Source of the DNA: an uncultured Verrucomicrobiae bacterium
GTDB taxonomy: Bacteria; Verrucomicrobiota; Verrucomicrobiia; Limisphaerales; UBA11358
DNA length: 64,000 nucleotides
Direction of reading: 5' to 3'
NCBI GenBank assembly: GCA_963802965.1
Contig: CAWDKS010000003.1
Span: 202,819-266,818, forward strand
This document shows, piece after piece, positions 1-59,161 of this stretch (its first letter is position 1; the number at the start of each line of letters is the position of its first letter). The notes beneath the pieces were generated by a model that was not told where the DNA came from, searched no databases, and was given only the letters and a program-made list of their open reading frames with translations. The position numbers and the translations under genes are program-made.

Positions 1-654
1 TGACCGAACCGAACAATTCGCTTTCAATCAATTCGCGCGGCAGGGCGGCGCAATTGATTTTGATGATTTTGTTTTTGCTGCGCGGGCTGAGCGCGTGAAT
101 CAGGTCGGCGATGACTTCCTTGCCCGTGCCGCTTTCGCCGGTGATGAGCACGGTGACGTCGCTGGGCGCGAGGCGCTCGACGGTGCGCACGATCTCCTGC
201 ATGGCCGCGCTGCGGAAAACGGCGAGGCGGCGCCGCTCATGGTTTCCAACGCCCGCCGCAGGCTGCTGTTTTCCTCGCTTTGCTGTTTGCGTTCGATGGC
301 GCACTTGACGTCCGCCAGCAGCTTTTCATTTTCGAAGGGCTTGGAGAGGAAATTATAGGCGCCGCGTTTGCCGGCCTCGGCGGCCATCTCCATCGTTCCC
401 TTGCCCGTGAGCATGATGACCTCGGTGTCAGGCCAGCGTTTTTTGATCTGGGGCAGCAGTTCGAGCCCGTTGTTGTCCGGCCCGCTGCCCAACATCACGT
501 CCAGCACGATCACGTCCGGCTGGGTTTGGGTGAAGGCCTTTTTCAAGGCCGTGCCACTGTCGGCCTCGGCGACCACATAGTCTTTCTCCAAAACCTCGGA
601 CAGCAGAAGACGGATGTGAGCCTCGTCATCAACGATAAGAACTGTTCCATTCAT
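1..654 (-). pseudogene. sigma-54-dependent (NtrC/Fis family) response regulator, 3' end off-window, apparent frameshift
   Basis: The receiver domain MNGTVLIVDDEAHIRLLL...DVIVLDVMLG...LSKPF starts at ATG 654 in the frame of ORF 100..681. The AAA+ activator motifs AAMQEIVRTVERLAPSDVTVLITGESGTGKEVIADLIH...INCAALPRELIESELFGS are hand-translated from 202 down to 2 in a different frame. The frame switch lies somewhere in about 205-245. Confidence 0.7.
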
Positions 655-662
655 AATTCGCG

Positions 663-1427
663 TTATTCGGGTTGTGCACAAACCTGGACAAACCGCTCAA
701 AAATGGCGCGGTGTTTCGCGTATCGCTCCGTCAACCGCTCAGGATGGAATTGCACGCTCAACCAAAACGGCAACGCCCGCGCTGCCTCCGGATTCAATTC
801 CATCGCTTCCACAATTCCATCACGGCTGCGCGCCACCGCCACCAGCGGTTCCGCCGGCCGGAGCACCGCCTGGTGATGCGAGCTGTTCACGCCCAATGTT
901 CGCTTGCCCGTAATCTTGGCCAGCAACGAGCCGGCTGTCAACGCCACTTCATGCACCAAATCACCGGCCTTGTCCAGACGTTGGTGATTGATCGCGCCCG
1001 GCACCTGGCGGCGGATGTCCGCCACCAAATCGCCGCCGAACGCCACATTCAACAATTGGTGCCCGCGGCAAATCGCCAGCAGCGGCTTGCGCTGGCGGAA
1101 GGCCTCGCCAATCAACTGCAACTCGCGCAGATCACGCCCCCCGCCGTCCGGCGTCATCCCGACGGTTTTGCACACGGCGGGCGGCAGACGGTCGGTGTAA
1201 AGATTGGGGTTGATGTCGTCGCCGCCGGTGAGCAACACCCCGTCCGCGCGGCGCACGGCTTCGGCGAGGAGGGCACGGTCGGTTGTTGCCGGCGCCGTGA
1301 CGGGAATGCCGCCGGATTGAAGGACGGCGAAATCGTATTTGACCGAGAGGCTGATGGACAAATCGTGAAACTCGACCCCGCGTTTTTCAATGCTGGGGGA
1401 AACAAGAATCAAGGGCGGCTTGGCCAT
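663..1427 (-). CDS. class-I glutamine amidotransferase-like peptidase C26 (gamma-glutamyl-GABA hydrolase family)
   Basis: ORF 663..1436 with an internal ATG at 1427 (MAKPPLILV). Motifs AICRGHQLLNVAFGG, SSHHQAV and QFHPE match the Cys-His-Glu amidotransferase triad context. Confidence 0.8.
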   Translation of the reverse strand: MAKPPLILVSPSIEKRGVEFHDLSISLSVKYDFAVLQSGGIPVTAPATTDRALLAEAVRRADGVLLTGGDDINPNLYTDRLPPAVCKTVGMTPDGGGRDLRELQLIGEAFRQRKPLLAICRGHQLLNVAFGGDLVADIRRQVPGAINHQRLDKAGDLVHEVALTAGSLLAKITGKRTLGVNSSHHQAVLRPAEPLVAVARSRDGIVEAMELNPEAARALPFWLSVQFHPERLTERYAKHRAIFERFVQVCAQPE

Positions 1428-1524
1428 TTCCCTCAATAATAAGGAGATTTGGCCGTATTGTCATGGCAAAATCAGCGGGAAACCTCAGGGGTTTTAACAC
1501 CATAAAAATAAACAAAAAAACCTC

Positions 1525-1552
1525 TTGCACGGGTCTGGCGGGCTGGTAGATT
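1525..1552 (+). promoter_or_regulatory. candidate rRNA promoter P1 (sigma70-like)
   Basis: TTGCAC (1525-1530), a 16-nt spacer, then TAGATT (1547-1552). An A-rich tract (aaaataaacaaaaaaa) lies upstream, and the site is about 340 nt upstream of the 16S. Confidence 0.45.
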
Positions 1553-1603
1553 GTTTTTTCAGACGCTTTCGTTTGACGGAAGCAAAACCGGCGAAAAAGC
1601 CTG

Positions 1604-1631
1604 TTGACAACCGGCGCGAACCTGATAAATT
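1604..1631 (+). promoter_or_regulatory. candidate rRNA promoter P2 (sigma70-like)
   Basis: TTGACA (1604-1609), a 16-nt spacer, then TAAATT (1626-1631), with gcgaaaaagc upstream. Confidence 0.5.
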
Positions 1632-1892
1632 CCGCGCCCTCAAACTCGAATCTGGATGCCGAGTTAAAAAAGAAGAATTCGGCTGTCAGGTTTGTTGTCG
1701 TTTGAATGGGAAAGACGGCTGGATGTTTTGATTGAATTTTCGGGTGTTTTGGACACCCGCTGCTCATTGAAAATTGAATTGTGCGATAAGTGAGAGCCCC
1801 TTCAAGGGCAGTCCGTTAGTGATTGTCTTTGGAGAGTTTTAATAATTGTAATTCGTCCGATTAATCATCGGACAGGAATTAAACTAACGTTT

Positions 1893-3455
<1,563 letters not shown>

Positions 3456-3596: not shown

Positions 3597-3666
3597 GATT
3601 TACGATATATGATTTACGATTGGGGTGCCGGTTGGTTGGCCAATCGTAAATCCGAAATCGTAAATC
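3597..3666. repeat. inverted repeat with 7-nt-periodic arms (AATCGTA units) in the 16S-tRNA spacer
   Basis: The left arm gatttacgatatatgatttacgatt (3597-3621) is complementary to the right arm aatcgta aatccga aatcgta aatc (3642-3666). The loop is ggggtgccggttggttggcc. Confidence 0.8.
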
Positions 3667-3677
3667 AAAAATGGGCT

Positions 3678-3753
3678 GGGGCTGTAGCTCAGTTGGTAGA
3701 GCGGTAGCTTTGCAAGCTATAGGTCAGGAGTTCGAGTCTCCTCAGCTCCACCA
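3678..3753 (+). tRNA. tRNA-Ala (TGC), CCA encoded
   Basis: Hand-folded cloverleaf: acceptor GGGGCTG/CAGCTCC with G3:U70, anticodon loop TTTGCAA, T-loop GGTTCGAGTCC-like. Confidence 0.95.
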
Positions 3754-3873: not shown

Positions 3874-3950
3874 GGGCGTGTAGCTCAGTTGGTTAGAGCA
3901 TGCGCTTGATAAGCGCAGGGTCACTGGTTCGAGTCCAGTCACGCCCACCA
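3874..3950 (+). tRNA. tRNA-Ile (GAT), CCA encoded
   Basis: Acceptor GGGCGTG/CACGCCC, anticodon stem TGCGC/GCGCA with loop TTGATAA, T-arm CTGGTTCGAGTCCAG. Confidence 0.95.
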
Positions 3951-4175: not shown

Positions 4176-7076
<2,901 letters not shown>

Positions 7077-7200: not shown

Positions 7201-7290
7201 GTCAGTAGTTGGCAGTCAGTAGTCAGCAGCGTGGGAATTGGGAAAGTCTGTTCCCTGCTAAGAGCAAGGATTGCTGACTGTTAACTGAAT
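7201..7290. repeat. 7-nt-periodic repeat (GTCAGTA units) with a partial inverted partner, in the 23S-5S spacer
   Basis: gtcagta gttggca gtcagta gtcagca at 7201-7228, with the complementary ttgctgactgttaactga at about 7271-7288. The same unit family is found inside mfd at 34711-34792. Confidence 0.6.
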
Positions 7291-7294
7291 ACTT

Positions 7295-7410
7295 TTTGGT
7301 GGCCTTAAAGCTGTGGTCCGACCCGATCCCATTCCGAACTCGGCCGTCAAACACAGCGTTGCCGATGGTAGTAGTCCTATAGGTTCTGCGAGAGTAGGTA
7401 GCCGCCAGTC
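7295..7410 (+). rRNA. rrf: 5S ribosomal RNA
   Basis: Helix I TTGGTGGCC/GGTAGCCGCCAG, plus the conserved CCGAACTC...GCCGATGGTAGT...GCGAGAGTAGG. Confidence 0.93.
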
Positions 7411-11942: not shown

Positions 11943-11962
11943 AAAAAATTTCAAAAAAGCTG

Positions 11963-12012
11963 TTGACAGTTTTGACAACTCGTGGATAATAACGACAATA
12001 TTAGTCGTTATT
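11963..12012 (+). promoter_or_regulatory. candidate promoter plus palindromic operator of the sulfate-uptake operon
   Basis: TTGACA (11963-11968), a 16-nt spacer, then GATAAT (11985-11990). This overlaps a 9-bp-arm palindrome AATAACGAC-aatatta-GTCGTTATT (11988-12012). Confidence 0.5.
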
Positions 12013-12017
12013 AGATC

Positions 12018-12206
12018 ATGAATGCGATTCAGGTCAAAGCTAGTGGAAGCGCCGATGAAAAGCCCGGCTGGCTGGAAATCGTGCGTCGGCAGGTTGGTTC
12101 GCTGCGCTACGGCATGGTGCAAATCGTCGTGCATGATTCGCATGTCACGCAGATTGACAGGACCGAGCGCGTGCGTCTGGACAAGCCGCGAACTCAAAAC
12201 ATTTAA
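12018..12206 (+). CDS. YezD/DUF2292-like small protein
   Basis: 62 aa. The segment LRYGMVQIVVHDSHVTQIDRTERVRL resembles the GSV-I-VHDG-VVQIE--EK-R core that I recall for YezD-type proteins, which typically neighbour sulfur-assimilation genes. Confidence 0.65.
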   Translation: MNAIQVKASGSADEKPGWLEIVRRQVGSLRYGMVQIVVHDSHVTQIDRTERVRLDKPRTQNI

Positions 12207-12284
12207 CCGACCAGAACACTGGAGGCAAAACCCGGAACGAAAAATGCCGACCGGGAAAACCAGAAGCTGAATGAAAAACAAGCA

Positions 12285-13697
12285 ATGAAAAACGCAAACA
12301 CAAAGACAAGAATCTATTCCAGCCTCTTTCTTTTTGGCGTTGCCGGCTTGCTATCAAAAACGCATGGCGCAGGCACTCCGGCGGTTGATTCCAATTCGGC
12401 CGCGCGGCAAAAACCGGTCTGGCTGACTGATTTGTCCCTGGGCGTCAAGGAAAGCTATGACGACAATCTGCTGCTGGTGTCCGGTAATGGCCTGACGCCC
12501 CAATCCTCCTGGGTCACCACGGCTTCGCCCAAGGTTGGCTTCAATTTCGCGCCGCTGTTGGGAAATCAAAGGACGTTGCAGACGCTGTCGTTGAGCTACA
12601 CGCCGGATTTCAATATTTACCAGAACGCCCCGTCGCAGAGTTACACCGCGCACAAGATTGGCGACACGATCAAAGGCCAAGCCGGTGATTTTTCATTCTC
12701 GCTGGACAATGCCTTTCTCTACAACGACGGCAATCATCGGGCCCCGATTTATGCCCTGAACCAGTCTGGCACCGCAGCCAGCCAACTCGATCAATTCCGC
12801 AACAACTACGCCCATCCCGTCCCCCGCGAGCGCCTGGCGCAGACCCAGGACCGCGCCACCATCCTGTTGCAATATGACTGGGACAAATTTTTCGTCCGGC
12901 CGGTGGCTTCGCTGCTGGATTACAACCTGATGACCGACTGGCACAACACGTCAGTGATTGCGGGATCTCCTCCTCCGGTTTATGGCTATCAAAACTATGT
13001 GGACCGTTACGACGAGAACGGCGGCGTGGATTTGGGATACAAGCTGACGCCGAAGCTGGCCGCGACGCTGAGCTACCGCTACGGCTCGCAATACCAGCAA
13101 CAGTTTCCGGCGGCGATTACCTTGGACCGTCATTATTCGTCCAGCGACTATCAGCGGGTGCTGCTCGGACTGGAAGGCAAGCCGTGGAACTGGCTGAATG
13201 TGAAGCTGGCGGGCGGCCCGGATTTCCGCAATTACAACTCCATGACTCCGGTCAACGATTTTCATCCGGTCAAGTATTACGGCGAGGCCGTCCTGACGGC
13301 GACGATTACGCCCAGCCAGTCAGTGACGTTTAATTACAAGCAATGGCAATGGGTTTCCAGCACCGGTAAAGTGCCGTATTCCGACAGCACCTACGCCCTG
13401 ACTTACCACTGGAATGCGACCAAGCAACTGGGATTGGACTTGGGAGGCAAAGTTTTGGAGGGTGACTACACCGAGGGCAATGACAATTCGGGGACGGCTC
13501 CGAGCCGGAGGGATGACATGGAATATGAGGCATCGGCCGGCGTGACCTACGCCTTCAACACCCATTTCAGCGCCAGCCTGGCTTACACCTACGACCTTGG
13601 CGACAACGCCCTGAACAACCTGCCCGCCACTTTGGGGCCGGCCTACCGCGACTTTGAACACCAGGTGGTTTCACTGGGCGTCCAATACAAGTTCTAA
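12285..13697 (+). CDS. outer-membrane beta-barrel protein (putative porin of the sulfate locus)
   Basis: Signal peptide MKNANTKTRIYSSLFLFGVAGLLSKTHG, alternating amphipathic strands rich in Y/G/N/D, and the C-terminal VSLGVQYKF aromatic terminus typical of OMPs. Confidence 0.6.
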   Translation: MKNANTKTRIYSSLFLFGVAGLLSKTHGAGTPAVDSNSAARQKPVWLTDLSLGVKESYDDNLLLVSGNGLTPQSSWVTTASPKVGFNFAPLLGNQRTLQTLSLSYTPDFNIYQNAPSQSYTAHKIGDTIKGQAGDFSFSLDNAFLYNDGNHRAPIYALNQSGTAASQLDQFRNNYAHPVPRERLAQTQDRATILLQYDWDKFFVRPVASLLDYNLMTDWHNTSVIAGSPPPVYGYQNYVDRYDENGGVDLGYKLTPKLAATLSYRYGSQYQQQFPAAITLDRHYSSSDYQRVLLGLEGKPWNWLNVKLAGGPDFRNYNSMTPVNDFHPVKYYGEAVLTATITPSQSVTFNYKQWQWVSSTGKVPYSDSTYALTYHWNATKQLGLDLGGKVLEGDYTEGNDNSGTAPSRRDDMEYEASAGVTYAFNTHFSASLAYTYDLGDNALNNLPATLGPAYRDFEHQVVSLGVQYKF

Positions 13698-22427: not shown

Positions 22428-24188
<1,761 letters not shown>

Positions 24189-24311
24189 ACAACACTCAAC
24201 ACTCAATGCGCCCCGACTGCTGACCGAAAGCGGTAGTCTAATATCAATTGCCATTGCAATTTCGTCAAGTGGGGAAACGCCGTCTTCGGAAAGTCGCGTC
24301 CGCAAAATCGT

Positions 24312-31498: not shown

Positions 31499-35128
<3,630 letters not shown>

Positions 35129-35220: not shown

Positions 35221-36309
35221 GTGCATCTGGCTCATTTGCGGCTGCGGGATTTTCGCAATTTTGCCCGGCTGGACGCGGATTTCGCGCCCGGCTTCCATCT
35301 GCTTTTGGGCGACAACGCGCAGGGCAAGACGAACATCCTCGAAGCCATCTATCTCATGGCCACGCTGCGGTCGTTCCGCGGCGTCGGCGGCGCGCAGATG
35401 ATCCGGCACGGCGCGAAGGGTTATTTCGCCGGCGGCAGCGTGGTGGGGCAGGGCGGCCACGAAATCAAAATCTACTGGTCGGCGCGCGAACGCAAACTGG
35501 CGCTGGACGGACAGCCGGTTAAACGCCTCGGCGATTATCTCGGCGTGTTGCGCACGGTGGTCTTTTGCACGGAGGATTTGCATCTGGTCAAGGGCACGGC
35601 ACGCGCTCGCCGGCGGTTTTTGGATCTGCTGCTGGCACAGACACGGCCCGGCTATCTGCCGCTGCTTCAGCGTTACATGCGCACCATCCGCGCCCGCAAT
35701 GCGCTGCTCAAACAACGCGCGATGGACGAGGCCGCGCTGGACAGTTTTTCGCAGGAACTCGTCAAGCTCGGCGACGAAATCATCCGCGCGCGCCGCGAGC
35801 TGGCGCCGAAATTCTCTCCATTGGCACGGCTGGCGTATCGCCGCATCTCGAACGAAGCGGAGGAATTACGGATCGAATATCAGCCGGGCGTGAAAAAGGA
35901 TTTCGCCGTGGAACTGGCGCAATCGCGTTCGCGTGAACGGACCTATCGCTCCACGCTCGTCGGCCCGCACCGGGACGATTTGCAATTGCTGCTCAACGAA
36001 AAATCCGCCGCGCATTTCGGCAGCGAGGGCCAGAAGCGCACGCTGGCCATCGCATTGAAGATGGCGCAGGCGGAATTTCTCACCGGCATCCACGGTTCGC
36101 CGCCGATTCTGCTGATTGACGACGTGATGGGCGAACTGGACGTGAAGCGCCGCAGCGGTTTTTTGCCGTTGCTGGATTACGCGCGCAAAAGCAGCGGACA
36201 GGTATTCATGACCGCCACCGAGGAAAACTGGCCGAGCGAACTCGGAAAAGATTTGCAGCGGTGGGAAGTTGTGAACGGAGCGTTGAAGCGTGATTTGTTG
36301 AAGCGTTGA
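35221..36309 (+). CDS. recF: DNA replication/repair protein RecF
   Basis: Probable GTG start at 35221 (VHLAHLRLRDFRNF); the ORF track starts at 35125. Walker A LLLGDNAQGKTNILEAIY, signature GSEGQKRTLAIALKMAQ, Walker B LLIDDVMGELD. Confidence 0.88.
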   Translation: MHLAHLRLRDFRNFARLDADFAPGFHLLLGDNAQGKTNILEAIYLMATLRSFRGVGGAQMIRHGAKGYFAGGSVVGQGGHEIKIYWSARERKLALDGQPVKRLGDYLGVLRTVVFCTEDLHLVKGTARARRRFLDLLLAQTRPGYLPLLQRYMRTIRARNALLKQRAMDEAALDSFSQELVKLGDEIIRARRELAPKFSPLARLAYRRISNEAEELRIEYQPGVKKDFAVELAQSRSRERTYRSTLVGPHRDDLQLLLNEKSAAHFGSEGQKRTLAIALKMAQAEFLTGIHGSPPILLIDDVMGELDVKRRSGFLPLLDYARKSSGQVFMTATEENWPSELGKDLQRWEVVNGALKRDLLKR

Positions 36310-36362
36310 AGCGGCTTGCTCGTTCCGCGCTTTAACGCTTTAACGCTTCAACGCTTTAACTT
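36282..36362. repeat. inverted repeat with 8-nt units (TTGAAGCG / CGCTTTAA) spanning the recF stop
   Basis: gttgaagcg tgatttg ttgaagcg ttgaagcg (36282-36312) faces cgctttaa cgctttaa cgcttcaa cgctttaa c (36328-36360). The recF stop (36307-36309) lies in the left arm. Confidence 0.8.
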
Positions 36363-38607: not shown

Positions 38608-40923
38608 ATGAAACTGGTTACTCAAATCAAACGTCATCCCCGGTTGTTGTTGGTTCTGGTCGCGCTGTCGGCCGGTGCCGGAACCGCCGGCGCGCAGGAA
38701 TCTCCCGTTTATCTGGATGCGACCAAACCCATCGAAACGCGCGTCGGGGATTTGCTTTCCCGCCTGACCCTGGAAGAAAAGGTTTCGCTGGTCCATGCCG
38801 ATGCGCGTTTCTCGGTCGCCGGCGTTCCCCGGCTGGGCGTTCCCGGGCTGCGGATGAGCGACGGACCCATCGGCGTGCGCGCGGAAGAGCGGTTCGGCGC
38901 GCGGGGTGAAGAGCGGTCATCGGATACGCGCGTTGATGATTTTGCGACCGCCATGCCGGCGACGCTGGGTCTGGCAGCGACGTGGAACACCGACCTGGCC
39001 ACGGCTTACGGCGCGGTGATCGGCCAGGAAGCCATGCACCGCGGCAAGAATATCATGCTCGGGCCCGCGCTCAACATCCAGCGCACTCCGTTGTGCGGCC
39101 GGAATTTTGAGTATATGGGCGAGGACCCGTTCCTGACCTCGCGCATGGCCGTCAATTACATCCAGGGCGAACAGGCCCAGGGCGTCTCCTCCTGCGCCAA
39201 ACATTATGCCGCGAACAACCAGGAATACGAGCGGAATACGATCAACGTGGAGATGGACGAGCGCACGTTGCGGGAGATTTATCTGCCGGCGTTTCGCGCG
39301 GCGGTGCAGGAGGGGGGCGTGTTGACCGTCATGGGCGCCTACAACCTGTTCCGCGGCCAGCACTGTTGCGAGAACGATTATCTGCTCAACAAAATTCTCA
39401 AGGATGAATGGGGATTCAAAGGCGCCGTCATGTCCGACTGGGGCGGCGTGCATCATACCGATTTGGCCGCGTTCAACGGCATGGACATCGAGATGGGCAC
39501 GCGCCCGCCTTACGAAAGCAACTATCTGGCCCAACCCTATCTGGCAGGGTTGGAGTCCGGCCAGTTTCCCGTGTCCACCGTGGACGAAAAGGTCCGGCGC
39601 AGCCTTTACATGATGTTCAAACTGAACCTGATCCACGACCCGTCCGCGCCGGCGGCCACCAACGCCGGGCCGCAGGGTCCGTTGAGCACCAAGGCGCACC
39701 AGGAAACATCGCGCCAGGTGGCGGAGGAATCCTTTGTGCTACTGAAGAATGAAAACCTGCTTCCGTTGGACCCGGCCAGGATCAAAACCATCGCCATCAT
39801 CGGCGCCAATGGCGCGGCGCGGTTCGCCAACGGAGGCGGTTCCGCCATGGTCAAACCGCCTTACGAAATCACCGCGCTACAGGGTATCAGCAACCGGCTT
39901 GGCGACGGCGTGAAGCTCATTTATGCCCAGGGCTACAATGCGGCCAGCGGTTCGGGACGACCTGACCGGCGGGACATCGAAGCGCCACCGCCGCTCCTGA
40001 ATGTTTCCAATCTGGTTGCCGAAGCCGTGGCCGCCGCCAAATCGGCGGACGCGGTCATTTATATTGGCGGCTTGAACCACCATGGCGGTTACGACACCGA
40101 AGGGGCGGACCGCAGGGACCTCAAATTGCCCGCCGGACAGGACGAGTTGATCCAGAAAATCGTGCAGGCCAATCCCAAGACCGTGGTTGTGCTCATGGGC
40201 GGCGGGGCCGTGGAAATGGATGCGTGGCTCGCCAAAGTACCGGCCGTGCTCTACGCTTGGTATCCCGGTTTGGAAGGCGGCAACGCGCTGGCCCATGTCC
40301 TTTTCGGCGACGTGAATCCGTCGGGCAAACTGCCCTGCACCTTCCCGGAACGGCTGGCGGATTCGCCGGCGCACGCGCTCCAGGCCTATCCCGGCACCAA
40401 CGACACCGTGGTTTACCAGGAAGGCCTCCTCGTCGGCTACCGCTGGTTCGACACAAAAGAAATCAAGCCGCTGTTCCCCTTTGGCTACGGCCTTTCCTAC
40501 ACCACGTTCAAATATTCGCGGCTCAACCTCGTTCCCGATCCGGCGGCGCTGAACGTGCCCGTGACGGTTGAATTCGAGCTTGCCAACACCGGCAGCCGCG
40601 CCGGCGCGGAGGTGGCTCAGGTCTATGTGCAGGAAGCCAGCCCCAGCCTGCCGCGGCCGCTCAAGGAGCTGAAGGGTTTCAAAAAAGTTTTCCTGCAACC
40701 CGGGGAAAAACGAAAAGTATCCCTCGTCCTCGACCGAAGCGCCTTTGCCCATTACGACCCGGACAAAAAAGGCTGGGTGGCCGACAAGGGCGCCTACAAA
40801 ATCCTGATCGGCAGTTCCTCGCGCGACATCCGGCTCCACGGCACATTCAAACTGGCGGAAACGCTCGTTGCGCTGGATGGCCCGGCTCAATATGCGCCAG
40901 ACGCCTTCGCCGTGGTGAAATGA
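38608..40923 (+). CDS. bglX: glycoside hydrolase family 3 beta-glucosidase
   Basis: Signal peptide, KHYAANNQE, GAVMSDWGG (nucleophile Asp context), and a C-terminal FnIII-like domain. Confidence 0.9.
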   Translation: MKLVTQIKRHPRLLLVLVALSAGAGTAGAQESPVYLDATKPIETRVGDLLSRLTLEEKVSLVHADARFSVAGVPRLGVPGLRMSDGPIGVRAEERFGARGEERSSDTRVDDFATAMPATLGLAATWNTDLATAYGAVIGQEAMHRGKNIMLGPALNIQRTPLCGRNFEYMGEDPFLTSRMAVNYIQGEQAQGVSSCAKHYAANNQEYERNTINVEMDERTLREIYLPAFRAAVQEGGVLTVMGAYNLFRGQHCCENDYLLNKILKDEWGFKGAVMSDWGGVHHTDLAAFNGMDIEMGTRPPYESNYLAQPYLAGLESGQFPVSTVDEKVRRSLYMMFKLNLIHDPSAPAATNAGPQGPLSTKAHQETSRQVAEESFVLLKNENLLPLDPARIKTIAIIGANGAARFANGGGSAMVKPPYEITALQGISNRLGDGVKLIYAQGYNAASGSGRPDRRDIEAPPPLLNVSNLVAEAVAAAKSADAVIYIGGLNHHGGYDTEGADRRDLKLPAGQDELIQKIVQANPKTVVVLMGGGAVEMDAWLAKVPAVLYAWYPGLEGGNALAHVLFGDVNPSGKLPCTFPERLADSPAHALQAYPGTNDTVVYQEGLLVGYRWFDTKEIKPLFPFGYGLSYTTFKYSRLNLVPDPAALNVPVTVEFELANTGSRAGAEVAQVYVQEASPSLPRPLKELKGFKKVFLQPGEKRKVSLVLDRSAFAHYDPDKKGWVADKGAYKILIGSSSRDIRLHGTFKLAETLVALDGPAQYAPDAFAVVK

Positions 40924-42575: not shown

Positions 42576-43292
42576 TCACGGGGCGCGATTGGACGAATCA
42601 CCAGTCGTCGGGGCGGCAACGGATTCTGCCTTCTTCATTTTGCCTTCTTCATTCAGTTGAAGTTGCTCCGGCGGATTGGTGGCCAGGCCGGGTTCGGCCG
42701 TCACGGGCGCGGGCGGTTTTTCGACCACGATTTTCCTGAGTTCATCCGCGGCGGGCAAACCGTCCAGACCGCGCAGGCCGAAGTATTCGAGGAACAACGG
42801 CGTGGTGCCGTAAGTCGGCGGCCGGCCCACCACCTCGGCGCGTCCGGCGCCCTCGACCAGCCCGCGTTCCATCAGCGTTTGCATGACGCCATCCACGTTC
42901 ACGCCGCGAATCTGCTCGACCTCGGCGCGCGTGACCGGCTGGCGATAGGCGATGATGGCGAGCGTTTCGAGCGCGGGCTGCGAAAGCCGCGGCGGACGGA
43001 TTTTTTGTCCGACCAGCGCCTTGAGCCACGGCGAAAATTCCGGTTGCGTGACGAATTGCCACGCGCCCGCGACGCACGCGAGGCGATAACTGCGCCCGCC
43101 GGTTTCGTGTTCGCGCGCCAGTTGTTCCAGCGCGGCGGTCAACTCGCTCTCCTTGATTTTGGCGAGCGATTTGGCGGTGGCGTCGGCGTCCTCGGCTTCG
43201 GCGGCGGCGGCCAGCACGTCACGAAGCTCCTTTACGTTCAACGGTTTTTGCGCGGAGAACAGGAGCGATTCCAAAATGAATTTCAGTTCCAT
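42576..43292 (-). CDS. scpB: segregation and condensation protein B
   Basis: MELKFILESLLFSAQKPL... and ETLAIIAYRQPVTRAEVEQIRGVNVDGVMQTLMERGLV (winged-helix ScpB repeats). Confidence 0.88.
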   Translation of the reverse strand: MELKFILESLLFSAQKPLNVKELRDVLAAAAEAEDADATAKSLAKIKESELTAALEQLAREHETGGRSYRLACVAGAWQFVTQPEFSPWLKALVGQKIRPPRLSQPALETLAIIAYRQPVTRAEVEQIRGVNVDGVMQTLMERGLVEGAGRAEVVGRPPTYGTTPLFLEYFGLRGLDGLPAADELRKIVVEKPPAPVTAEPGLATNPPEQLQLNEEGKMKKAESVAAPTTGDSSNRAP

Positions 43293-54074: not shown

Positions 54075-56531
54075 GTGAACGCGCCGCCAGCAACGCGATT
54101 GAAGATCGCCGTGCGCGGCGCGGTGCAGGGCGTCGGGTTTCGCCCGTTCGTTTTCCGCCTCGCCACCGGACTCGGCCTGGCCGGCTGGGTCAACAATTCC
54201 CCGCGGGGCGTCTTCATTGAAGTTGAAGGCCCGCGCGCGTCGCTCGAAAAATTCCTGCTCCGCCTCGAAGCGGAAAAGCCGCCGCGCAGCTTCATTCAAA
54301 GCCTCGAAACGTTGTGGCTCGATCCGGCCGGTCAGACCGGTTTTGAAATCCGCGCGAGTGAAACCGGCGGCGGCAAAACCGCGCTCGTCTTGCCGGACAT
54401 CGCCACCTGTCCCGATTGTCTGCGCGAAATTTTTGATCCCAAGAACCGGCGGCACCGCTATCCATTCACGAATTGCACGAATTGCGGGCCGCGCTTCAGC
54501 ATCATCGAATCCCTGCCTTACGACCGCGCGAACACCTCGATGAAATCGTTCACGATGTGCCCGCAATGCCGGGCCGAATACGACGACCCACTAGACCGCC
54601 GTTTCCACGCGCAGCCCAACGCCTGCCCGGTCTGCGGACCGCGCCTGACGCTTTGGGAGTGCGGCGACATGTCGCCGCTTTCAAAGCGCGGACATGTCCG
54701 CGCACTCCAAAATAACAATGCCTTGCTCGCTGCCGCTGAATCCATCCGCTGCGGTAAAATCGTCGCCGTCAAGGGACTGAGCGGATTTCATCTGATGGCG
54801 GATGCGCGCAACGACAAGGCCGTCCGGCTCCTGCGAAAACGAAAACATCGCGAGGAAAAGCCATTCGCCCTGATGTTTCCATCACTCGAAAGCGTGAAAG
54901 CCGAATGCGAAGTCTCCCCACTCGAAGAACGATTACTCCGCTCATCGGAGGCACCCATCGTTCTTTTGGAAAAAATCGTAAATCGCAAATCGCAAATCGT
55001 AAATGCCGTGGCTCCCGGCAATCCCAATCTCGGCGCGATGTTGCCGTCGAACCCGCTGCATCATCTGCTCATGGCCGAACTGGGCTTTCCGGTCGTCGCC
55101 ACCAGCGGCAACCTGGGCGACGAACCGGTTTGCACGGATGAACATGAGGCGCGGGAACGTCTCGGCCGCATCGCCGATGTGTTTCTGGTTCATAACCGCC
55201 CCATCGTCCGTCACGTGGACGATTCGATTGTGCGCGTCATGCTGGACCGTGAACTGGTGCTGCGCCGCGCCCGCGGCTACGCGCCGCTGCCCATTCAACT
55301 CGTAGGAGCCGACGTGAGGAGGCTCAACCTTCAAGAACAAAATGAGTCAGAGCCTCCTCACGTCGGCTCCTACAAAACAATTCTGGCCGTTGGTGCGCAC
55401 CTGAAAAACACCGTCGCGCTCGCCGTCGGCAATCAGGTTTTCCTCAGCCAGCACATCGGCGATTTGGAGACGGAACCGGCGCATGCCGCCTTCCGCCGTG
55501 TCATTGCTGATTTCCAGAAACTTTACGACACCCGGCCGCAAATCATCGCCGCCGATTTGCACCCGGATTATCTCTCGACCAGATTTGCGCGTGAATTCGG
55601 CGATGCGCCGTTGGAGTTCACGCTTCAGCGTGTTCCGAAAGCGCAGACGACAGGCAAGCTAAAGCTTGAACTCCAACACGTTGGCGTCCAGCACCACGTC
55701 GCCCATGTCCTGTCCTGCATGGCGGAGAATGAAATCGCGCCGCCCGCGCTCGGCGTTTCGTGGGACGGCACGGGTTACGGGCTTGACGGCACAATCTGGG
55801 GCGGTGAATTTTTCCTCGTCACCAACGAAACCGTCGAACGGGTCGCGCATCTGCGCCCGTTCCGGTTGCCCGGCGGCGACAAGGCGGTCAAGGAACCGCG
55901 CCGCACCGCGCTCGGATTGCTATACGAAATTTCCGGCGACAAGGTTTTCAAACGGAAAAAACTGGCAACGATTGCCGCTTTTTCGGCGGCGGAAATGGTC
56001 ACGCTGAAAACGATGCTGGCCAAAAAATTGAATTCGCCGCTTTGTTCCAGCGCGGGCCGGTTGTTCGACGCCGTCGCCTCGCTCGTCAATCTCCGCCAGC
56101 ACATCCGGTTTGAAGGCCAGGCCGCGATGGACCTGGAATTTGCGCTGGATGGCGTGGACACAGACGAGACTTATCCCTTGTCACTCGTCACTCGTCACCC
56201 GTCACTGGTCCTGGATTGGTCGCCGATGATTGAGGCGATTTTATCGGACGTGCAAAATGGCGTTCCCGGTGGCAGGATTTCCGCGAAGTTTCACAACGCG
56301 CTGGCCCAGGCCGTGGTGGCCGTGGCAAAAAAAATCGGCGAACGGCGCGTGGTGTTGAGCGGTGGCTGTTTTCAAAACCGTTATCTGACGGAGCGAACGG
56401 TGCGGCGGTTGCAGGCGGAAGGGTTCCGCCCGTATTGGCACCAGCGCGTGCCGCCCAACGACGGGGGAATCGCGCTGGGTCAGGTCCTGGCGGCGTTTCG
56501 AGAACGGCAGATCGTAAATCGTAAATCATAA
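54075..56531 (+). CDS. hypF: carbamoyltransferase HypF
   Basis: GTG start. Acylphosphatase domain (VRGAVQGVGFRPFV), two zinc fingers (CPDCLREI...CTNCGPRFSI, CPQCRAEY...CPVCGP), YrdC-like (VAVKGLSGFHLMADA) and Kae1-like (VQHHVAHV) domains. Contains six repeat-derived segments. Confidence 0.92.
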   Translation: MNAPPATRLKIAVRGAVQGVGFRPFVFRLATGLGLAGWVNNSPRGVFIEVEGPRASLEKFLLRLEAEKPPRSFIQSLETLWLDPAGQTGFEIRASETGGGKTALVLPDIATCPDCLREIFDPKNRRHRYPFTNCTNCGPRFSIIESLPYDRANTSMKSFTMCPQCRAEYDDPLDRRFHAQPNACPVCGPRLTLWECGDMSPLSKRGHVRALQNNNALLAAAESIRCGKIVAVKGLSGFHLMADARNDKAVRLLRKRKHREEKPFALMFPSLESVKAECEVSPLEERLLRSSEAPIVLLEKIVNRKSQIVNAVAPGNPNLGAMLPSNPLHHLLMAELGFPVVATSGNLGDEPVCTDEHEARERLGRIADVFLVHNRPIVRHVDDSIVRVMLDRELVLRRARGYAPLPIQLVGADVRRLNLQEQNESEPPHVGSYKTILAVGAHLKNTVALAVGNQVFLSQHIGDLETEPAHAAFRRVIADFQKLYDTRPQIIAADLHPDYLSTRFAREFGDAPLEFTLQRVPKAQTTGKLKLELQHVGVQHHVAHVLSCMAENEIAPPALGVSWDGTGYGLDGTIWGGEFFLVTNETVERVAHLRPFRLPGGDKAVKEPRRTALGLLYEISGDKVFKRKKLATIAAFSAAEMVTLKTMLAKKLNSPLCSSAGRLFDAVASLVNLRQHIRFEGQAAMDLEFALDGVDTDETYPLSLVTRHPSLVLDWSPMIEAILSDVQNGVPGGRISAKFHNALAQAVVAVAKKIGERRVVLSGGCFQNRYLTERTVRRLQAEGFRPYWHQRVPPNDGGIALGQVLAAFRERQIVNRKS
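54652..54712. repeat. nested palindromic element inside hypF
   Basis: Outer arms TTTGGGAGTGCG and CGCACTCCAAAA enclose the palindromes GGCGACATGTCGCC and GCGCGGACATGTCCGCGC. It is translated as WECGDMSPLSKRGHVRALQN. Confidence 0.8.
54974..55001. repeat. tandem heptamers AATCGTA AATCGCA AATCGCA AATCGTA inside hypF
   Basis: Four 7-nt units followed by aatgcc, translated as IVNRKSQIVN. The unit family is the same as at 3642-3666 and 56510-56537. Confidence 0.85.
55302..55373. repeat. perfect 24-bp-armed palindromic element, TGTAG family, in frame inside hypF
   Basis: GTAGGAGCCGACGTGAGGAGGCTC (55302-55325), a 24-nt loop, then GAGCCTCCTCACGTCGGCTCCTAC (55350-55373). The total is 72 nt, or 24 codons (VGADVRRLNLQEQNESEPPHVGSY). 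Confidence 0.92.
55611..55676. repeat. palindromic element, TTGGAGTTCA family, in frame inside hypF
   Basis: The arms are TTGGAGTTCACGCTT (55611-55625) and AAGCTTGAACTCCAA (55662-55676), with 1 mismatch. The total is 66 nt, or 22 codons (LEFTLQRVPKAQTTGKLKLELQ). Confidence 0.88.
56181..56208. repeat. tandem heptamers TCACTCG TCACTCG TCACCCG TCACTGG inside hypF
   Basis: Four 7-nt units, translated as SLVTRHPSLV. Confidence 0.8.
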
Positions 56532-56537
56532 ATCGAA
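56510..56537. repeat. tandem heptamers GATCGTA AATCGTA AATCATA AATCGAA spanning the hypF stop
   Basis: These supply the last residues (QIVNRKS) and the TAA stop (56529-56531) of hypF. The element ends 6 nt before the hypC ATG. Confidence 0.85.
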
Positions 56538-56543
56538 AATTCC

Positions 56544-56895: not shown

Positions 56896-57984
56896 ATGAA
56901 ATACCTCGACGAATATCGCGACGGTGGGCGCGCGCGGCAACTGGCGCAGGAAATCCACCGCCGCACGACCCGGCCGTGGAACATCATGGAAGTCTGCGGC
57001 GGCCAGACGCACGCCATCGTGAAGTTCGGCATTGACGAACTGTTGCCCAAACAAATCACACTCATTCACGGGCCGGGTTGTCCCGTCTGCGTGACGCCGC
57101 TGGAAATGATAGACAAGGCGCTCGAAATTGCCGCGCGGCCCGGCGTCATTTTCGCCTCGTTCGGCGACATGCTGCGTGTGCCCGGCAGCGCGACCGACCT
57201 GCTTTCAGTCAAGGCCCGGGGCGGCGACGTGCGCATCGTTTATTCACCGCTCGACGCGGTGAAATTCGCGGAACAAAACCCGGCCAAAGAAGTTGTGTTC
57301 TTCGGCGTCGGTTTTGAAACCACCGCGCCGGCGACGGCCATGGCGGTGTATCAGGCGGCGCAAAAGGGGCTGAAGAATTTTTCGATGCTCGTCTCGCACG
57401 TGCTCGTGCCGCCGGCGATGGAGGCGTTGATGTCGTCGACGAACTGCAAGGTGCAGGGTTTTCTCGCCGCCGGGCACGTCTGCACGGTGATGGGTTACGA
57501 GGAATACCCGCCCATCGCGGCGAAATATCGCGTGCCGATTGTCGTGACCGGTTTTGAGCCGCTGGACATTTTGCAGGGTGTGCTGATGGTGGTGCAGCAG
57601 CTCGAATCCGGCCGGGCCGAGGTCGAAAACCAATACACCCGCTCGGTGCGCCGCGAAGGCAACCAGCCGGCGCAGGAACTCATCCGCAAAATTTTCAAGG
57701 TCGTCCCGCGCAAATGGCGTGGCGTCGGCGAAATTCCGCGGAGCGGTCTGGGATTGAACGACGCCTACGCCGCGTTCGACGCCGAAAAGAAATTCGGTCT
57801 GGTCGAGCACCACGTGGCGGAACCGGCCGAATGCCTCAGCGGGCTGGTCTTGCAGGGACAAATCAAACCGCAGGAATGCCCGGCGTTTGGCACGAAATGC
57901 ACGCCGGAACATCCGCTCGGCGCGACGATGGTGTCATCGGAGGGCGCATGCGCGGCCTACTATCGATACCGGCGGCGCAATTGA
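56896..57984 (+). CDS. hypD: hydrogenase formation protein HypD
   Basis: [34 protein letters not shown] and C-terminal Cys motifs. Confidence 0.92.
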
Positions 57985-58005
57985 ACCAGCCATGAAGAAA
58001 CACTC

Positions 58006-58100
58006 AACAACCAACATCCAACACCGAACATCCAATTTTTCCCGGAAAGGCAGACGCAGATCCTTCGATGTTGGGCGTTGGATGTTCGATGTTCGATGTT
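58006..58100. repeat. inverted repeat with AACATCC/AACATCG heptamer arms between hypD and hypE
   Basis: aacaacc aacatcc aacaccg aacatcc (58006-58033) is complementary to tcgatgttgggcgttggatgttcgatgttcgatgtt (58065-58100). Confidence 0.85.
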
Positions 58101-58117: not shown

Positions 58118-59161
58118 ATGGACTTTAACTCCACCTGCCCGATTCCCATTCAGCAGTATCCGCATGTCCTGCTGGCGCATGGCGGCGGCGGCAAGCTGAT
58201 GCACCAGCTCATCGGCAACATGTTCCTGGCGGCGTTTGGCAATCCGCCGCTTGAAACGCAGCACGATTCGGCGGTGGTTGAATGGACCGGCAAAAAACTC
58301 GCGTTCACGACCGATTCCTACGTCGTGCGGCCGTTGTTTTTCCCCGGCGGCGACATCGGTTCAATGGCCGTTCACGGCACGGTGAACGACCTCGCCATGA
58401 GCGGCGCGCGGCCGCTTTATCTCAGCAGCGCATTCATCATCGAGGAAGGATTGCCGATGGACACGCTCTGGCGCGTCGTCTGCTCGGTGCGCGACGCGGC
58501 GCAACGGTGCGGCGTGCAAATCATCACCGGCGACACCAAGGTCGTGGACAAGGGCAAGGGCGACGGCCTGTTCATCAACACCGCCGGCATTGGCGTCATC
58601 GAACACGACCAAAAAATCGTGCCGCAAAACGTGCAGCCCGGCGACGCCGTGCTGGTGAGCGGCGATTTGGGCCGGCACGGCATGGCCATCATGGCCGTGC
58701 GCGAAGGACTGCAATTCGAGAGCACCATCGAAAGCGATTCCGCGCCCGTCCACGAAATGGTTTTGGAGCTGCTCAAGGCTGGGATTGAAATTCATTGTCT
58801 GCGCGACCTGACCCGCGGCGGACTGGCGGGCGCGCTCAACGAGATTGCCGAGGGGGCAGGGGTGCGCATCGAAATCGTGGAAAAAACCGTGCCGGTGCGC
58901 GAAGACGTTCACGCCGCCTGCGAAATGCTCGGGCTTGACCCGTTGCACGTTGCGTGCGAAGGGCGCATCGCCGCGTTCATCGCGGCCAGGGACGCGGAGC
59001 GCGCGTTGCAAATCATGAGCCGCCACGCCGTTGGAGCGGGGTCGGCGGTCATCGGCAGGGTGGCGGAAAGCTCCGCGCCGCTGGTCACGTTGAAAAGCGC
59101 GATTGGCGCAAACCGGATACTCGACATGCCCGGCGGCGAGCAGTTGCCGAGGATTTGTTGA
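58118..59161 (+). CDS. hypE: hydrogenase maturation carbamoyl dehydratase HypE
   Basis: AIR-synthase-like fold ([23 protein letters not shown]) and the C-terminal GEQLPRIC motif. Confidence 0.92.

Follow-up and report, generated by a model that had tools for sequence, protein, structure and literature searches.

Why should one layout, hairpin arms built of four tandem 7-nt units, recur at many loci while the units themselves differ from locus to locus? The question was raised by a foldback hairpin at positions 3597-3666 of a 64-kb stretch of DNA (the window) from a soil or peat Verrucomicrobium of the Limisphaerales/Pedosphaera group of Verrucomicrobiota. This hairpin lies in the 16S-tRNA-Ala spacer (internal transcribed spacer, ITS), and an initial annotation had listed nine further loci of similar build; we found the units described at all ten. 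The window was compared with the best 80 Mfd loci of related species, nearly all of which carry a Verrucomicrobiota label, and with hyp loci on 80 metagenome contigs and two metagenome-assembled genomes (MAGs). Tandem Repeats Finder (TRF) was run on a main set of 1.42 Mb (the window and 82 loci) and on an independent hyp set of 0.64 Mb, together about 2 Mb. The sample of arrays is biased to mfd and hyp loci, and an rRNA operon was present in none of the 162 fetched loci. Our preferred explanation, to which we give a probability of about 0.5, is that the arrays are products of DNA-level misalignment and homogenisation, advancing 7 nt at a time and reaching no further than about 30 bp, and that selection retains those whose units are free of stops and whose positions can be tolerated.

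We scanned the window for tracts with at least 70% matches at lag 7 across four units, using Markov shuffles as the control. Ten period-7 tracts were found, compared with 0.55 in the shuffles (about 18-fold). Other periods were not enriched save for the coding-related period 6, and periods 8-12 gave 0-2 tracts. In the 1.42 Mb set, TRF returned 350 non-redundant period-7 arrays against 58 of period 6, 60 of period 8 and 131 of period 9, the last being coding-like. Array lengths showed a dip at 18-21 nt and a peak at 28-32 nt, with 162 of the 350 rounding to four copies. The 0.64 Mb set behaved similarly: 222 arrays of period 7 were found against 32 of period 6 and 22 of period 8, the mode was 31-32 nt, and 88 arrays rounded to four copies and 73 to five. 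A typical array has about 4.4 tandem units, or about 31 bp. With period 7 dominant and lengths peaking at 28-32 nt in two locus sets, the proposed preference for four units of 7 nt is real and lineage-wide; it is neither restricted to the window nor dissolved in a broad spread of periods and lengths. Relatives with Mfd identity of 68% or less are mostly without arrays; L071, L073, L077 and L078 are examples of array-free relatives. A few in-frame arrays in mfd extend to 11-16 units, far beyond the usual four or so (L055 5075-5180 and 7681-7794; L065 1622-1703; L029 11431-11507; types AATCCGA, GGACGGA and CAGACCC).

Many arrays are translated. In this biased sample 224 were located in mfd, and 52 of the 91 non-mfd arrays lay in long open reading frames (ORFs); of the ten window sites, six fall within or overlap mfd or hypF and are translated in frame. 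The 253 period-7 or period-14 arrays of 77 Mfd orthologues cluster at about eight alignment positions (window residues ~94-120, ~157, ~283-297, ~380, ~450-470, ~557 and ~1072-1095). In HypF, 60 arrays from 31 ORFs fall into three or four recurrent loops, again with units that differ by species. At the same Mfd position different species carry different units in the same register and at about the same length; at residue ~157 we found AATCGGC, AACTCAA, CACTCCG, ACGCAAC, AATCCGA, GTCCAAA, ATCTGCC and others. The earlier statement that periodicity and unit count are kept while sequence diverges holds even at orthologous sites over dozens of species. At Mfd ~157 and ~557, the loops of array-free relatives are within a few residues of the length of those of array bearers, suggesting that the arrays at these two positions occupy pre-existing loops. 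Between close species pairs the arrays differ at 19-48% of positions, compared with 15-21% at fourfold sites (1.2-3x). In sister species (L007 vs L010; L006/L015/L040) variants occupy one or two neighbouring units with the length unchanged, which argues that the sequence turns over while the layout is retained, as in concerted evolution. A case of apparent in situ spreading at Mfd 557 (L039 vs L007) was dropped as proof, being equally readable as a decayed array.

The composition of the translated units is restricted. On the sense strand of solitary mfd arrays, TA makes up 0.4% and TG 0.8% of unit dinucleotides, so that stops are avoided in all three frames. The same arrays are A/C-rich, with C exceeding G in 131 arrays against 31, and encode peptides rich in S, P, R, Q and T. 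Both features are a selection filter and not a signal. In the hypF array at 54973-55004, GCA variants (units 2 and 3) stand exactly where GTA would give an in-frame TAA, and the stop codon of hypF is itself supplied by the array at 56511-56540.

Seven is not a multiple of three, and a one-unit change shifts the frame; arrays could on this ground be contingency loci, with the gain or loss of a unit turning genes such as mfd and hypF on or off. The few in-frame expansions to 11-16 units would agree with this. However, the mfd frame is open through the arrays in 77/77 aligned species at about four units, which is under the usual range of instability. These are housekeeping genes, and up to eight arrays per gene would make such a gene unreliable. 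The sole broken hypF, that of L002 (ENA MAG contig, 1-3300), is split from end to end into five or more frame segments and is either a noisy long-read assembly or a pseudogene; we rejected it as a case of array slippage, since its frameshifts occur throughout the gene and not only at arrays. We regard phase switching as extremely improbable.

Two further observations concern translated arrays. A third gene with orthologous in-frame arrays (AGTTCGG, ATTCTGG and others) is an ORF of 545-581 aa on the - strand downstream of mfd (L005 19144-19179; L016 16034-16067; L075 15245-15280 and 15967-15993; L020 23420-23448; L017 4416-4446; L023 15352-16044). In L011, L008, L025 and L022 the CTCAACY array at Mfd ~157 is interrupted mid-way by some 30 nt of inserted GC-rich sequence, such as CCACGGCGCGACGAAGCGGAGCGCAGGCGG, which encodes ...ARRSGAQAA.... 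Small insertions within heptamer arrays have reportedly been seen in Nostoc.

We then considered how arrays pair. An inverted partner within 130 nt was found for 55-80 of 315 arrays (~17-25%), compared with 2-11 in the control, and about 75-80% of arrays are solitary. We delimited 54 hairpins. Where an array has an inverted copy, this lies 20-40 nt away, and the resulting foldback hairpins measure 70-130 nt. The hairpin-arm architecture of the initial annotation is thus confirmed as an excess of inverted pairs, but not as the general form, most arrays being solitary. The hairpins formed by the paired loci of the window are very stable (z = -3.9 to -6.7), and a pairing partner at ~7268-7287 was found for the 7201-7229 array, which had been listed as single.

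Within arrays, a rule by which unit 2 carries a CG-containing variant did not survive, CG being no more frequent in variant units (48%) than in consensus units (53%). Unit identity is higher at lag 14 (0.86) than at lag 7 (0.82; p = 1e-5), and ABCA and ABAA patterns are common; the greater likeness of non-adjacent units fits with units 1 and 4 sharing a codon phase. The repertoire is wide, with at least six unit families in the window alone and 154 canonical units among the 350 arrays. An expectation-maximisation (EM) search for a common motif gave 4.6 bits against 3.3-3.8 for the null, a weak signal on which we rejected a shared recognition motif. Mfd and hyp-locus arrays have the same cyclic unit in 0.62% of comparisons, whereas 0.07% is expected and the highest value among 200 shuffles was 0.12%. 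About 20-25 recurrent unit families are shared, implying that units are to some extent copied from site to site or that the process strongly prefers certain sequences.

These data bear on the proposal that the arrays are recognised, by their four-by-seven layout, by a protein or guide RNA dedicated to binding them. The layout is conserved where the sequence is not, a limited unit repertoire is common to different sites, and a heptamer-binding factor has been speculated for Nostoc (bioRxiv 10.1101/2022.06.06.494920). Periodicity, however, is unreadable without reading sequence, and here the reader would face well over 100 unit sequences with a weak common motif (4.6 vs 3.3-3.8 bits). Moreover, the units evolve faster than synonymous sites, and the sites are dispensable, often being empty in relatives. 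A recognised partner therefore finds no support in our data, and we think it very unlikely.

Orthologous hairpin sites vary in content, and at two of them presence or absence differs between close relatives. At Mfd 450-470, array-free species have a 39-nt basal segment whereas array-rich species have in-frame segments of ~90 nt, which fold at -30 to -80 kcal/mol. The two arms change together by species (AGTCCAC/GTGGACT, GAGTCGA/TCGACCC, AGTCCAA/TTGGACT, GGGTCTG/CAGACCC, AGTCAGT/ACTGACT). Ten other species have, in place of the heptamer hairpin, a nested palindrome GTAGGACAGGCG...CGCCTGTCCTAC resembling REPINs, the inverted pairs of repetitive extragenic palindromes (REPs). These in-frame palindromes (L014, L007, L004, L008, L015, L056, L024, L057, L058, L055) have the form GTAGGRCAGGCGTCYCGCCTGYC ... 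GRCAGGC..GCCTGYCCTAC, are 70-130 nt long with a dG down to -83 kcal/mol, and fall in alignment columns 862-985 (window ~32840-32928), exactly the heptamer-hairpin site of other species.

Of 79 hypD-hypE spacers compared, 30 are empty, with a length of 5-19 nt, and the remainder have hairpins of several families: the window's AACATCS, ATTTACG/CGTAAAT, AATCCGA, a type not built of heptamers (CCTCGTTCTCG) and a REP-like CCCTCTCCC...GGGAGAGGG element. The AACATCS family occurs at two different positions of this spacer. Hairpin arms of CCTCGTTCTCGTCCTCCTCCTCG type with period 3/6/9 are present there in L088, L092 and L094, and L087 has a 200-nt element made of CCCTCTCCCTCAGGGAGAGGG / GGGGAGAGGGCCGGGGTGAGGG palindromes. 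The family of the window's ITS hairpin (ATTTACG/CGTAAAT; GATTTAC) was found in the hypD-hypE spacer of 13 relatives and, in L037, at an unrelated operon spacer. In L002 a GATTTAC-type array (11946-11983) adjoins a gene with a 23S_rRNA_IVP (PF05635) domain at 11969-12325. In the recF-like/trpS spacer, L075, L014 and L009 have 7-nt AACATYG/GATGTT hairpins at the same position as the window's 8-nt-unit hairpin (36282-36362), which had rightly been taken for a relative and is one by position.

Could the hairpins be non-autonomous mobile foldback elements, akin to miniature inverted-repeat transposable elements (MITEs) or REPINs, moved in trans and with solitary arrays as half-elements or decayed copies? 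This is the main rival to our explanation. The same arm families are present at unrelated loci and in different species, presence and absence vary in close relatives as described for both sites, AACATCS has two positions in one spacer, and GTAG...CTAC palindromes of REPIN type are at the same sites in other species. An in-frame comparison case is provided by the Rickettsia palindromic elements. Nevertheless, we found no target-site duplication: the longest direct repeat of the 20-nt flanks of the 54 hairpins averaged 4.04 nt, against 3.94 nt in the control. Duplicated stop/start motifs around the hypD-hypE hairpins, seen by eye, were not relied on, this test being negative. Copies of one family at different loci have neither loop nor core in common; in the GATTTAC family the loops of the ITS, L037 and hyp-spacer hairpins are unrelated, and loops are the most variable hairpin part even among orthologues. 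The arms are not self-palindromic and are without a GTAG head, most arrays are solitary, and the loops at Mfd ~157 and ~557 are about as long in array-free relatives. No transposase, REP-associated tyrosine transposase (RAYT) or reverse transcriptase was found among 30 window ORFs scanned with Pfam. A single transposing master copy, already doubted initially, does not fit with so wide a repertoire (154 units in 350 arrays) or with the lack of a conserved core and of target-site duplications. We consider mobility in trans unlikely, though a serious contender.

The hairpins might instead be selected RNA elements acting in processing, stability or attenuation of polycistronic or pre-rRNA transcripts, like REP/BIME, ERIC or Correia sequences. 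They fold very stably and are placed ~22 nt past a stop codon or just ahead of tRNA-Ala and 5S. In an alignment fold, orthologous AACATCS hairpins of the hypD-hypE spacer have conserved arms, a free loop and four pairs with compensatory CG<->UA double changes, and in many species both the recF-like/trpS spacer and Mfd 450-470 keep a hairpin of one sort or another. On the other hand, non-Watson-Crick stem positions were G.U in 64 and A.C in 98 instances among 80 sense-oriented hairpins, and 34 and 32 among intergenic ones. A constraint on the transcript would have produced a G.U excess; complementarity is therefore maintained in the DNA or by whatever mechanism generates the hairpins. In addition, 30 of 79 orthologous hypD-hypE spacers are empty, most arrays are solitary and have no local pairing available, and many lie inside ORFs, where ribosomes unwind them. 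A simple terminator scan did not flag the hairpins, but it admits only loops of 3-8 nt, which they exceed, and is thus uninformative here. We judge a general RNA function improbable; exaptation of the intergenic hairpins as RNA elements is possible, with similarly low odds, but unsupported.

We therefore return to misalignment and homogenisation of DNA. Replication or repair misalignment with a 7-nt step would build tracts of up to ~30 bp, which intra-array slippage or conversion would continually homogenise. Template switching between the arms would maintain the complementarity of inverted copies. Arrays would persist only in unconstrained sequence, namely rRNA spacers, short operon spacers and protein surface loops, and in translated loops selection would filter the unit only, for the lack of a stop in three frames and for a hydrophilic peptide. 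That the arrays are neutral, and the enzymology by which units of 7 nt would be added, are inferred.

Several results weigh against this explanation. Lengths peak at ~4.4 units, where simple slippage predicts a monotonic decay, and identity at lags 14 and 21 is above that at lag 7, where slippage predicts that adjacent units are most alike. Stepwise growth inside genes is hard to explain, since one unit more or less in an ORF is a frameshift. Array density is ~0.8/kb in mfd and ~0.08/kb in its flanks (~10x), for which tolerance alone may be an insufficient account. Identical units at unrelated sites are ~9x above the expectation from composition, and unit identity is 3.5% within a genome against 1.2% between genomes (~3x). 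The empty or variously filled hypD-hypE spacers look like insertion and not like local growth. Finally, no enzyme was identified. The peaked lengths, the frameshift problem, the shared units and the ten-fold mfd enrichment leave room for a dedicated DNA activity that would proceed in 7-nt steps, measure out ~30 bp, and write and rewrite four-by-seven arrays and their inverted copies into permissive DNA, loops of essential-type genes among it. We regard such a writer as improbable. If it existed, the layout would be inherited at a site while the sequence was replaced, a repeat-writing molecular drive distinct from ordinary slippage or transposition, and it may be common to Xanthomonas, Nostoc and other heptamer-rich bacteria.

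The arrays, other repeats and genes of the window are collected in Table 1. Further genes encode RmuC and PPDK, and there is a hox/hyp hydrogenase cluster. The named relatives of the window's HypE are Verrucomicrobiia/Limisphaerales MAGs. Nine records (L013, L017, L026, L039, L050, L058, L062, L069 and L081) have an Mfd ~67-83% identical to that of the window under MAG titles such as Acidiferrales, Bifidobacteriaceae, Methylomirabilota, Aquilonibacter, Acidoferrum, Saccharimonadales and Limnocylindrales; they are probably mis-binned or mislabelled.

Table 1. Heptamer arrays, other tandem repeats and genes located in the 64-kb window.
Feature	Position	Strand	Context	Details
Foldback hairpin, inverted GATTTAC/AATCGTA arrays	3597-3666	+	16S-tRNA-Ala spacer (ITS)	left arm GATTTACGATATATGATTTACGATT, 20-nt loop, right arm AATCGTAAATCCGAAATCGTAAATC; tRNA-Ala starts 12 nt beyond; RNA fold -34.8 kcal/mol, z = -6.2
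GTCAGTA-type (GTCAGYA) array 7201-7229 pairing with 7268-7287	7201-7287	+	23S-5S spacer	-40.7 kcal/mol, z = -5.3; end 8 nt upstream of 5S rRNA
CAACACT x2.4, short, doubtful member	24184-24212		5' part of rpoD (rpoD on - strand)	
Solitary AATCGGC x4.4	31968-31998	+	in frame in mfd, variable loop	11-residue peptide
Foldback hairpin, arms AGTCCRC x4.6 / GTGGACT	32846-32923	+	in frame in mfd, inter-domain loop	z = -6.7
Foldback hairpin, arms (AGTCAGC AGTCAGT)x2 / CCACTGACTAC-type	34711-34792	+	in frame in mfd, D6-D7 linker region	z = -3.9
8-nt-unit hairpin GTTGAAGC / GCTTTAAC	36282-36362	+	spacer between recF-like and Trp/Tyr-tRNA synthetase (class I) genes	z = -6.2
24-nt unit x2, non-heptamer	38870-38917		inside ORF	
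14-nt unit ATTCTGCCTTCTTC x2.3, non-heptamer	42623-42654		inside ORF	
Solitary AAATCGT/AAATCGC x4.6 (AATCGYA)	54973-55004	+	in frame in hypF	peptide KIVNRKSQIVN
Solitary GTCACTC x4.4	56180-56210	+	in frame in hypF	peptide SLVTRHPSLV
ATCGTAA x4.3 (AATCGYA type)	56511-56540	+	last codons of hypF, TAA stop and 12-nt hypF-hypC spacer	
Foldback hairpin, arms AACAWCC x4.4 / GGATGTT/CGATGTT x5.3	58005-58100	+	hypD-hypE spacer	z = -4.2; hypD stop at 57984, hypE start at 58118
16S rRNA	1893-3445			
tRNA-Ala	3678-3753			
tRNA-Ile	3874-3950			
23S rRNA	4176-7076			
5S rRNA	7295-7410			
mfd	31499-35128			

How do these arrays compare with known repeats? REPs, which are associated with RAYTs, are short dispersed palindromes of operon spacers, often in inverted pairs and in lineage-specific families; each REP is itself palindromic, has a conserved GTAG-type head and is extragenic. 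In contrast, the heptamer arms repeat their 7-nt units directly, do not self-pair, and have neither a common (GTAG) head nor a conserved sequence, and the true REPIN-like GTAG...CTAC elements at the same sites in some relatives are clearly distinct from them. Rickettsia palindromic elements are likewise hairpin repeats translated in frame in permissive parts of housekeeping proteins, but form conserved-sequence families of 100-150 bp with no heptamer substructure or unit turnover. Eukaryotic foldback transposons have arms of tandem subrepeats and a variable middle, but are much larger and some encode a transposase. The units are contiguous, unlike the spacer-separated repeats of CRISPR arrays.

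The nearest counterparts are heptanucleotide simple sequence repeats (SSRs). Heptanucleotides are reported as the most abundant class of long SSRs in prokaryotes, with polymerase slippage proposed as their origin (Mrazek 2007, as cited in PMC4679880 and PMC4692102). Our arrays agree with this class in their period-7 excess, a mode near four units and frequent convergent pairs, but not in having few units per genome or a predominantly intergenic location. In Xanthomonas, GGGAATC heptamer arrays of mostly four units are dispersed genome-wide, with 70-75 convergent, stem-loop-capable pairs per genome; they lie ~28 nt behind the upstream ORF and vary in length and sequence between Xcc and Xac (Rehm et al. 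2015, PLoS One, PMC4692102). They belong to one G-rich family, GGGANTN, which was read as a G-quadruplex former, and 89-93% of them are intergenic (PMC4692102). Tandem 7-nt units, the four-unit mode, convergent pairs and variation between related species are common to both systems. Unlike Xanthomonas, the lineage studied here has well over 100 unit sequences, mostly not G-rich and many translated in conserved genes, and turnover is documented at orthologous sites.

Beggiatoaceae have TAACTGA in 2-6 copies, occasionally at protein peripheries (MacGregor 2015, PMC4679880), and Nostoc has several heptamer families near starts and promoters, for which speculative regulatory roles were put forward (bioRxiv 10.1101/2022.06.06.494920). 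With these repeats and the short tandemly repeated repetitive (STRR) sequences of Calothrix and Nostoc/Anabaena our arrays share shortness (2-6 copies), presence at many loci, positions at gene starts and ends, occasional location in ORFs at protein peripheries and an orientation restriction of stop-containing units. However, each STRR or Beggiatoaceae genome has few specific units, mostly intergenic and often directly upstream of start codons, and the four-unit mode, arm co-variation and occupancy of orthologous loops seen here are not reported in the literature compared. Our literature search found nothing on heptanucleotide repeats in Verrucomicrobia.

It has been known since 1990 and 2007 that in many free-living bacteria no long simple repeats are more over-represented than heptanucleotides. 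Heptamer arrays can regularly supply housekeeping proteins with low-complexity loops, and in practice they are a hazard when genes are called, sequences aligned or MAGs polished. The arrays described here are of the STRR and Xanthomonas GGGAATC kind, and the four-by-seven, convergent-pair architecture was already described in Xanthomonas. New here are the many unit families, the frequent in-frame residence, and the retention of layout with unit turnover and co-change of arms at orthologous sites. Because dozens of species carry arrays at positions of conserved genes that match to the codon, a synonymous-site clock is available against which to measure how arrays arise and turn over, how arms co-evolve and how selection filters them, and this lineage thereby offers a comparative system that the published heptamer cases lack.

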